Positions 1 through 1,614 of a DNA stretch of 64,000 nucleotides are shown here, piece by piece. Position 1 is the first letter of the stretch, and every line of letters begins with the position of its first letter. The notes below the pieces were generated by a model, which was not told the DNA's origin, made no database searches, and was given only the letters and a program-made list of their open reading frames with translations. The stretch lies in NCBI RefSeq assembly GCF_044324785.1, contig NZ_CP172127.1, one strand, 5' to 3'. This stretch comes from Escherichia coli. Its GTDB lineage: Bacteria; Pseudomonadota; Gammaproteobacteria; Enterobacterales; Enterobacteriaceae. Made by a program: the position numbers and the translations under genes.

Positions 1-1614
1 GATGACGTCGTAGGTCTGGTCCCACTTAGGCAGCCAGTCGTAGCCCCAGTTGTTCTCTTTCTGCGCGGCATCGCCGTAGAAAGATTTCATCAGGCTAACG
101 AAGAACTTCGGATAGTTGCTCCAGTAGTTCACCTGATCAGCCAGCGTCGCTTTCGGCGTGTTCGCTTCCAGATACGACTGCAAATCAACCTGTTTTTCTG
201 ACGGCAGCGTCAGATAACCCGGCAGGCTGGTAGAGAGCAGGCCTAAGTCGGTCAGGCCCTGAATGTTGGAGTGACCACGCAATGCGTTCACACCGCCACC
301 GGCCATACCCATGTTACCGAGCAGTAACTGGATCATCGCCATAGTACGGATGTTCTGCGCACCCACGGTGTGCTGCGTCCAGCCCAGCGCGTACAGGAAG
401 GTGGTTGTGCGATCCGGTGCGCTGGTGGAGGCCAGCACTTCACACACTTTCAGGAAGTCGGCTTTTGGCGTACCACAGATGTTTTCTACTACGTCTGGCG
501 TGTAGCGGGAAACGTGCGCTTTCAGCAGGTTCCACACACAGCGCGGATGAGTCAGCGTGTCATCGCGTTTCGCATAGCCGTTTTCATCGAACTGATAGTT
601 CCAGGACGATTTATCGTACTGGCGTTTTTCAGCGTCATAACCGCTGAACAGGCCATCTTCGAAAGCAAAATCATCACGCACCAGCAGGCTGGCGTTAGTG
701 TAATGCTTAACGTATTCGGCGTTGATTTTGTTGTTTTCGATCAGGTAGCGCAAAACGCCAGACAGGAACGTAATGTCCGTACCGGAACGAATAGGTGCGT
801 AAATATCCGCCACAGAAGCGGTACGCGTAAAACGGGGATCGACAACGATCAAGGTTGCATCGTTGTTGTTTTTCGCTTCCATCGCCCAGCGGAAACCGAC
901 GGGATGCGCTTCAGCAGCATTACCGCCCATCACCATTACGACGTTAGCGTTTTTGATATCCACCCAGTGGTTGGTCATCGCACCGCGACCAAATGTTGGA
1001 GCAAGACTTGCTACCGTTGGTCCGTGTCAGACGCGCGCCTGGTTGTCTACCGCCAGCATACCGAGGGAGCGGGCAAATTTTTGAGTCAGCATCCCGGTTT
1101 CGTTGCTGGCACCGGAGGCACACAGCATACCGGTAGAAAGCCAACGGTTTACCGTTACGCCCTGCTCGTTCTTTTCAATAAAGTTAGCGTCACGGTCAGC
1201 TTTCATCAGCTTCGCAATACGGGAGAATGCTTCTTCCCAGCTAATGCGCTGCCATTTGTCAGAACCTGGCGCACGATATTCCGGGTAGCGCAGACGGTTT
1301 TCGCTGTTGACGTAATCCAGCAAACCGGCCCCTTTCGGGCACAGCGCACCACGGCTTACCGGATGATCCGGGTCACCTTCAATGTGATAAATTGCTTCTC
1401 TGGCGTTTTTCGCGCCATCACCCAGGCTATACATCAATAGCCCGCAACCTACGGAACAGTATGTGCAGGTGTTACGGATCTCTTTAGCGCGTAATAATTT
1501 GTAGTTTCGCGCCTGAGCCAGTGCTTGCTTTGGGGCAAAGCCCAATGCCGCTACTGTTGTTCCAGCCATACCGCCCGCGCAGATTTTAAAAAATTGTCTG
1601 CGACTGACGTCCAT
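1..1614 (-). CDS. fdnG: formate dehydrogenase-N alpha subunit (selenoprotein), N-terminal part; rest of gene lies beyond window start
   Basis: Minus ORF 1027..1614 starts MDVSRRQFFKICAGG (twin-arginine signal) with CTYCSVGCG Fe-S motif and ends at in-frame TGA (1027..1029); the same frame stays open down to position 1, consistent with UGA read as selenocysteine. Confidence 0.9.
980..1029 (-). promoter_or_regulatory. UGA selenocysteine codon (1027..1029) plus candidate SECIS stem-loop immediately 3' on the mRNA
   Basis: mRNA after UGA reads CACGGACCAACGGUAGCAAGUCUUGCUCCAACAUUUGG with self-complementary segments (AGCAAG/CUUGCU); fold not computed. Confidence 0.5.

Follow-up and report, generated by a model that had tools for sequence, protein, structure and literature searches.

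Formate dehydrogenase-N is a nitrate-inducible enzyme whose catalytic subunit is FdnG. The SECIS element that serves as the experimental model is that of fdhF, which encodes formate dehydrogenase-H, and the rules for the E. coli SECIS place the upper stem-loop 11 nt from the UGA, with U17 bulged and with G23 and U24 located in the apical loop (PMC8659212). SelB contacts the E. coli element at U17 and G23 (PMC8659212). For the nitrate-inducible enzyme itself, the major subunit is represented by chain A of PDB entry 1KQF.

Here, these systems are compared with a locus at the beginning of a 64,000-nt stretch of Escherichia coli DNA, which is referred to as the window in its full length. The UGA at 1029..1027 on the minus strand is, with a probability of about 0.97, the selenocysteine (Sec) codon 196 of FdnG, with a bacterial SECIS directly on its 3′ side, within the coding sequence (CDS). 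This reading is carried by the frame, the identity and position of the encoded residue, the structure, its conservation and its membership in an Rfam family.

Reading frame, protein and gene neighborhood

Translation of the reverse complement places fdnG on the minus strand, where the ATG at 1614..1612 is followed by 195 sense codons and then by the TGA at 1029..1027. Past the TGA, the frame remains open for 342 further codons up to window base 1 and contains no other stop. The window thereby holds the 5′ part of the gene (1..1614, minus strand), corresponding to codons 1–538 of 1015 and cut by the window edge, as supported by the translation, chain A of 1KQF, TIGR01553 and RefSeq. An earlier note on this DNA had described an FdnG-like frame which halts at the TGA at 1027..1029 after 195 codons and stays open to the window edge; its coordinates and codon count are correct, zero further stops are found, and the strand, which it did not state, is minus. 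Its expectation that a naive gene caller would split the gene agrees with the mechanical ORF list, which gives fdnG just as 1027..1614 (195 aa) and ends it at the TGA, and with RefSeq, which reads one CDS through. The two observations it named as contradicting its reading were additional in-frame stops past the UGA and the lack of a stable hairpin; the frame is free of such stops and the hairpin forms. In annotation, the site should be marked as a selenocysteine codon within a single CDS, as naive callers truncate or split fdnG.

When Cys is put at the TGA, the 538 residues encoded in the window match chain A of 1KQF over positions 1–538 (E = 0). The two proteins differ by three substitutions in residues 1–538, none of them near Sec196, and the crystallized chain carries the depositors' non-standard residue X exactly at position 196, opposite the TGA. 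It is by this alignment that UGA codon 196 (1027..1029, minus strand) is read as selenocysteine and that the earlier identification of the TGA with the known Sec position of formate dehydrogenase-N is borne out. The NCBIfam equivalog for the alpha subunit of formate dehydrogenase-N (TIGR01553) is matched at 905.8 bits, above its cutoff of 814.2; this score was obtained from the 538 in-window residues only (about half of the protein) and with Cys substituted for Sec. The Molybdopterin domain PF00384 is split by the TGA, with profile positions 1–68 matching upstream and 97–229 downstream, and since one domain is found on both sides, both ORF halves belong to one polypeptide.

All of the features expected for an alpha subunit are present, namely a Tat signal, an N-terminal Fe4S4 domain and the molybdopterin domain. 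The start codon (1614..1612) and the signal peptide MDVSRRQFFK...QALA, read directly from the translation, occupy 1516..1614 (minus strand), where the 33-residue extent of the peptide is an estimate made without cleavage-site prediction. The S-R-R-x-F-F-K motif of FdnG (SRRQFFK here) is what we take to be the twin-arginine (Tat) signal. The Fe4S4-binding domain of molybdopterin oxidoreductases (PF04879, 64.7 bits) covers residues 44–104, corresponding to 1303..1485 (minus strand). Judged by its sequence, the window protein is E. coli FdnG. A 356-aa antisense ORF at 370..1440 (plus strand), which overlaps the region of the Sec codon, has no Pfam family and was treated as a shadow ORF of fdnG.

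Of 5,426 complete E. coli genomes, 5,425 have a match to the first 1,700 nt of the window, the highest identity being 99.1%. The RefSeq annotation of the closest genome treats fdnG as one CDS of 3,048 nt that runs through the TGA and bears no pseudogene mark. Downstream of this CDS come fdnH and fdnI, and upstream of it lie yddG, a porin gene, genes for LRR proteins and narU. The upstream order from yddG to narU is seen in the window as well, and fdnH, fdnI and the 3′ half of fdnG fall beyond window base 1. By synteny with yddG and narU, the window copy is probably fdn, not fdo.

The intergenic region between fdnG and yddG (1615–1845) contains the inverted heptamers TACCTCA-AT-AGCGGTA at 1740–1755, approximately 126–141 nt upstream of the fdnG ATG. 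This pair resembles the NarL 7-2-7 site of the fdnG promoter and is a candidate site of this kind. A scan of the same intergenic region found no sigma-70 consensus promoter, which would fit an activator-dependent fdnG promoter.

Further upstream of fdnG, an intact gene for an OmpC-family porin (2987–4087, plus strand; NF007841, 497.9 bits with a cutoff of 484) is located between yddG and the LRR genes, and its counterpart in the closest genome is named ompC by RefSeq, though it lies away from the canonical ompC locus. The two tandem LRR-protein genes at 4251–5516 and 5558–6835 (both plus strand) encode proteins of 421 and 425 aa. They bear only a weak resemblance, at the level of the LRRs, to SlrP, a type III effector, and to internalin J, with E values from 1e-6 to 5e-10 and scores far below the cutoffs. 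The same region of the closest E. coli genome contains one intact LRR gene and one fragment flagged as a pseudogene. The gene narZ (nitrate reductase Z alpha subunit; 8640–12364, plus strand) exhibits a 16-nt deletion, TTCGCGATATTCAGGC, between 11625 and 11626 relative to narZ of E. coli VCSW5, which shifts the frame at about codon 996 and introduces a premature stop at about codon 1027. By its sequence, narZ is probably a pseudogene in this genome; narU upstream of it and narY, narW and narV downstream appear intact by ORF length.

Rfam match and fold of the SECIS element

The Rfam family SECIS_3 (RF01989) matches the window at 1032..974 (minus strand) with 84.3 bits, compared with a gathering score of 63, and an E value of 4.5e-20. 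The match covers the full model (positions 1–59), and no other Rfam match in the 64 kb rises above gathering. Model positions 4–6 are the UGA, which lies directly 5′ of the hairpin and inside the open fdnG frame. The earlier note had claimed a SECIS-like hairpin at 980–1029; its nature as a bacterial SECIS is upheld by the match above gathering, and its extent is to be corrected to the slightly larger 974..1032.

Five sites in the window have an in-frame TGA flanked by 100 or more open codons in either direction. One is the fdnG Sec codon, and the Rfam search of the 64 kb returned no SECIS match at the four others. One of these, the TGA at 48697–48699 (minus strand), is surrounded by 375 and 313 open codons and was rejected as a Sec site, as it is the stop of the ORF at 48697–49710 and abuts the ATG of the ORF at 47755–48696. 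These two ORFs share a frame and belong to a run of genes on the same strand, and no SECIS match is found there.

In the minimum free energy (MFE) fold, the apical, SelB-binding hairpin GGUAGCAAGUCUUGCUCC comprises nt 15–32 counted from the U of the UGA (998..1015, minus strand) and adopts the structure ((.(((((...))))))). It begins 11 nt past the UGA with G15 and G16, followed by the bulged U17, the stem bases A18, G19, C20, A21 and A22, the loop G23-U24-C25 and the 3′ arm from U26 to C32. Its landmarks correspond to window positions 1013 (bulged U17), 1007 (loop G23) and 1006 (loop U24). With a spacer of 11 nt, a bulged U17 and G23 and U24 in the loop, the fdnG hairpin agrees with the fdhF rules (PMC8659212). 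Below it, a lower stem (982..1027, minus strand) pairs nt 3–13 with nt 38–48, the 5′ arm being formed by 1027..1017 and the 3′ arm by 992..982, and closes a 5-nt internal loop (AACAU).

Folding gives −14.6 kcal/mol over 980..1029, −10.3 kcal/mol over the 40 nt that follow the UGA and −4.5 kcal/mol for the apical 18 nt, and the hairpin directly 3′ of the UGA is formed in every context folded. Relative to shuffled sequences, 980..1029 has a z score of −1.03, and 25 of 200 shuffles are at least as stable. The z score is −1.90 when the 40 nt that follow the UGA are folded, −2.06 when the fold is confined to the 18-nt hairpin and 0.27 when it is extended to 121 nt. Folding of the 40 nt 3′ of the UGA, the check proposed in the earlier note, does yield the hairpin, but at z = −1.90 it is not conclusive alone. 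Single-sequence folding was therefore rejected as the decisive test, given z scores of only −1.0 to −2.1 (0.27 in 121 nt), and comparative tests were used instead. That the SECIS goes beyond chance follows from the covariance-model score (84.3 bits), the covariation (0 of 500 shuffles) and the suppression of synonymous change (p = 1.3e-9), the latter two of which are described below.

Covariation and synonymous constraint among homologues

Homologous loci were collected in one genome per species by means of the pattern TGA CAY GGN CCN ACN GTN GCN NNN YTN GCN CCN ACN TTY GG, which fixes the peptide U-HGPTVAxLAPTFG and leaves the wobble bases free. The scan yielded at least 120 DNA stretches from Gamma-, Beta-, Alpha- and Deltaproteobacteria and, together with the window, at least 122 SECIS-equivalent segments with at least 64 distinct 59-mers. 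The listed loci, at least 122 from the four proteobacterial classes, all have an open frame before and after the TGA; the presence of the TGA is demanded by the search pattern and does not count as independent evidence.

Across the 64 distinct 59-mers among the matches listed, the apical stem is 100% paired, as opposed to 91.4 ± 0.8 in shuffles, with 37 double-sided cells (10.2 ± 2.4 shuffled) and a covariation score of 0.327 (0.165 shuffled). None of 500 shuffles reaches any of these three observed values, although sequences that share ancestry can outscore shuffles even if they have no structure, and the compensatory signal lies in two pairs only. Sliding the partners by 1–3 columns reduces apical pairing in these 59-mers from 100% to 27–62%. 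In alignment columns, the wobble-wobble pair 24–30 occurs among the matches listed as AU (42), CG (18) and GC (4), and the wobble-wobble pair 21–33 as GC (44), AU (15) and GU (5), each being paired in 64 of 64. The apical pairing has been maintained in evolution by compensatory change.

Free positions outside these two pairs are restricted as well. The wobble base of the Thr codon (G18) is invariant in the 64 listed 59-mers and paired to C35, and the wobble base of the Ser/Gly codon (U27, which is U24 counted from the UGA) is invariant among the matches listed, GC-rich lineages included. The variable codon is only ever AGU or GGU in these matches, a limitation which keeps G23 and U24 invariant. 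All three landmarks (U17, G23 and U24) are invariant in the 64 listed 59-mers; of the three, the pattern leaves only G23 and U24 free and fixes U17 as the middle base of the Val codon GTN.

Synonymous change is strongly suppressed over the element. For 37 distinct Enterobacterales-type sequences among the matches listed, the wobble entropy is 0.118 bits in codons +1 to +16 and 1.115 bits in 73 flanking codons, that is, approximately ten-fold lower inside the element (one-sided Mann-Whitney p = 1.3e-9). Likewise, the pairwise nucleotide identity of the listed Enterobacterales-type sequences is 98.8% in the 59 nt compared with 80.7% in 289 flanking nt. The frozen synonymous zone in this set extends from codon −1 to about +20, corresponding to approximately nt −3 to +63 or window 1032..967. 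It takes in the unpaired bases of the internal loop and about 15 nt past the hairpin base, and it exceeds the published 17-nt minimal SelB-binding hairpin. An extension of the helix in which nt −3 to −1 pair with nt 51–53 (columns 1–3 with 54–56) was considered to explain this zone; this 3-bp candidate, derived from a 4-bp extension in the 121-nt fold, was rejected, as its pairing and covariation are no better than those of shuffles. The extended freeze most likely stems from bias in codons or peptide, such as codon preference or the conserved peptide GRGAMTNHW. It seems rather unlikely that the freeze reflects an additional, undescribed sequence-specific constraint, which might act through mRNA entry-channel contacts, unwinding kinetics or the tuning of RF2 competition.

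The lower stem is less strictly conserved, with 85–87% of cells paired across the homologues listed. The Rfam and MFE registers reach 87.0% and 84.8%, respectively, neither being clearly better, and no double-sided covariation is found in either register across the 64 distinct 59-mers among the matches listed. The register follows the clade in the listed matches (L002–L121): Enterobacterales sequences with GGA...GGU fit the MFE register and pair A12 with U45, whereas the GC-rich clades with GGC...GGC fit the Rfam register with C12-G44 and G11-C45. In the literature, the lower SECIS stem is regarded as dispensable and as having to melt once the ribosome reaches the UGA, and the pattern observed here is consistent with this view.

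Alternative readings and known SECIS systems

If the TGA were a genuine stop, fdnG would be either a pseudogene created by a nonsense mutation or a pair of genes for two separate proteins. The mechanical ORF list does end at 1027, and gene decay exists in this genome, as seen in the probable pseudogene narZ with its 16-nt deletion. However, the 342 downstream codons are intact, and only 3 residues differ from 1KQF over the 538-residue match. One Pfam domain spans the TGA, RefSeq gives a single non-pseudo CDS, and the at least 122 listed loci from four proteobacterial classes are open on either side, although the TGA of these loci is required by the pattern. Moreover, a site scan found no restart or terminator signals, that is, no terminator-like or promoter-like sites near the fdnG TGA that would suggest two genes. 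A genuine stop is effectively refuted by this evidence and is left with a very slight probability.

The remaining alternatives accept the open frame and concern the hairpin and the decoding of the UGA. The hairpin might simply result from the need to encode the conserved peptide HGPTVASLAPTFGRG, with no function at the RNA level; this would fit the fold energy, which is unexceptional compared with shuffles, and the invariance of 4 of 7 pairs in the apical stem and roughly half of those in the lower stem, which are mostly fixed by the search pattern or the conserved peptide. Yet the free wobble bases follow the RNA structure: in all 64 distinct sequences among the matches listed, both wobble-wobble pairs are formed, each by three pair types across the set, the third base of the Thr codon is without exception the G that pairs with C35, and that of the Ser/Gly codon is U, even in GC-rich lineages. 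The synonymous entropy lies about ten-fold under that of flanking codons in the same genes. A mere by-product is hence extremely improbable. Alternatively, the UGA might mainly direct near-cognate insertion of Trp or Cys, or termination giving a 195-residue fragment, with Sec insertion as a minor outcome. Termination and misreading do happen at Sec codons under selenium limitation, and sequence gives no measure of efficiency; on the other hand, the orthologous crystal structure bears a non-standard residue at 196, and the strong selection on the SelB determinants fits only SelB-dependent decoding as the selected outcome. Predominant decoding as something other than Sec is accordingly given hardly any credence.

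For the UGA as the Sec196 codon of FdnG, the literature suggests how decoding may proceed. The apical stem-loop would offer the bulged U17 and the loop bases G23 and U24 to the C-terminal domain of SelB, a specialized elongation factor by which the complex of SelB, GTP and Sec-tRNA(Sec) could be tethered at the ribosomal mRNA entrance as the UGA enters the A site. Sec-tRNA(Sec) would then outcompete release factor 2, allowing translation to proceed to the full protein of 1015 residues, in which Sec196 is predicted to coordinate the bis-MGD molybdenum of this Tat-exported, periplasmic enzyme. Within the 64-kb window, no tRNA genes were found and selA, selB, selC and selD were not seen; the host is assumed to be competent for Sec insertion, with these four genes located outside the window.

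Among described elements, the fdhF SECIS (SECIS_2, RF01988) shares with the fdnG element the UGA, the 11-nt spacer, the bulged U17 and the loop bases G23 and U24, and in both of them the UGA region is part of a lower stem. They differ in that the apical stem of fdnG is 1 bp longer, in that its loop in the MFE fold is the 3-nt GUC as opposed to GGUC in fdhF, and in the encoded peptide. Membership of the fdnG element in SECIS_2 was considered and rejected; it aligns in register but reaches only 28.8 bits where the gathering score is 70, and it works like the fdhF element without being a member of that family.

The SECIS of the paralogue fdoG (formate dehydrogenase-O) has a genomic context different from that of the fdnG copy in the window. 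Where a genome has two loci, as in Citrobacter werkmanii (L011/L012) and Enterobacter cloacae (L027/L028), their 59-mers are identical or almost so, and the two loci are taken to be fdnG and fdoG.

The closest counterpart is fdnG of E. coli K-12 with its Sec196 and SECIS (RF01989; PDB 1KQF/1KQG), from which the window shows no difference of substance in gene, residue number or neighborhood. The 59-nt element of the window is identical to the commonest Enterobacterales sequence, which is common to at least 32 of the listed loci including that of E. coli (L001). The fdnG Sec codon and its SECIS are ordinary, strongly conserved, and already known and annotated. The earlier note had likewise called the site not novel, and it is indeed the textbook Sec196 and SECIS of fdnG, spanned by one RefSeq CDS. 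The locus adds no new biology to the textbook picture of bacterial UGA recoding, and it provides a clean illustration of an RNA structure inside a CDS, visible in the covariation of wobble bases and in an approximately ten-fold drop in synonymous variation.
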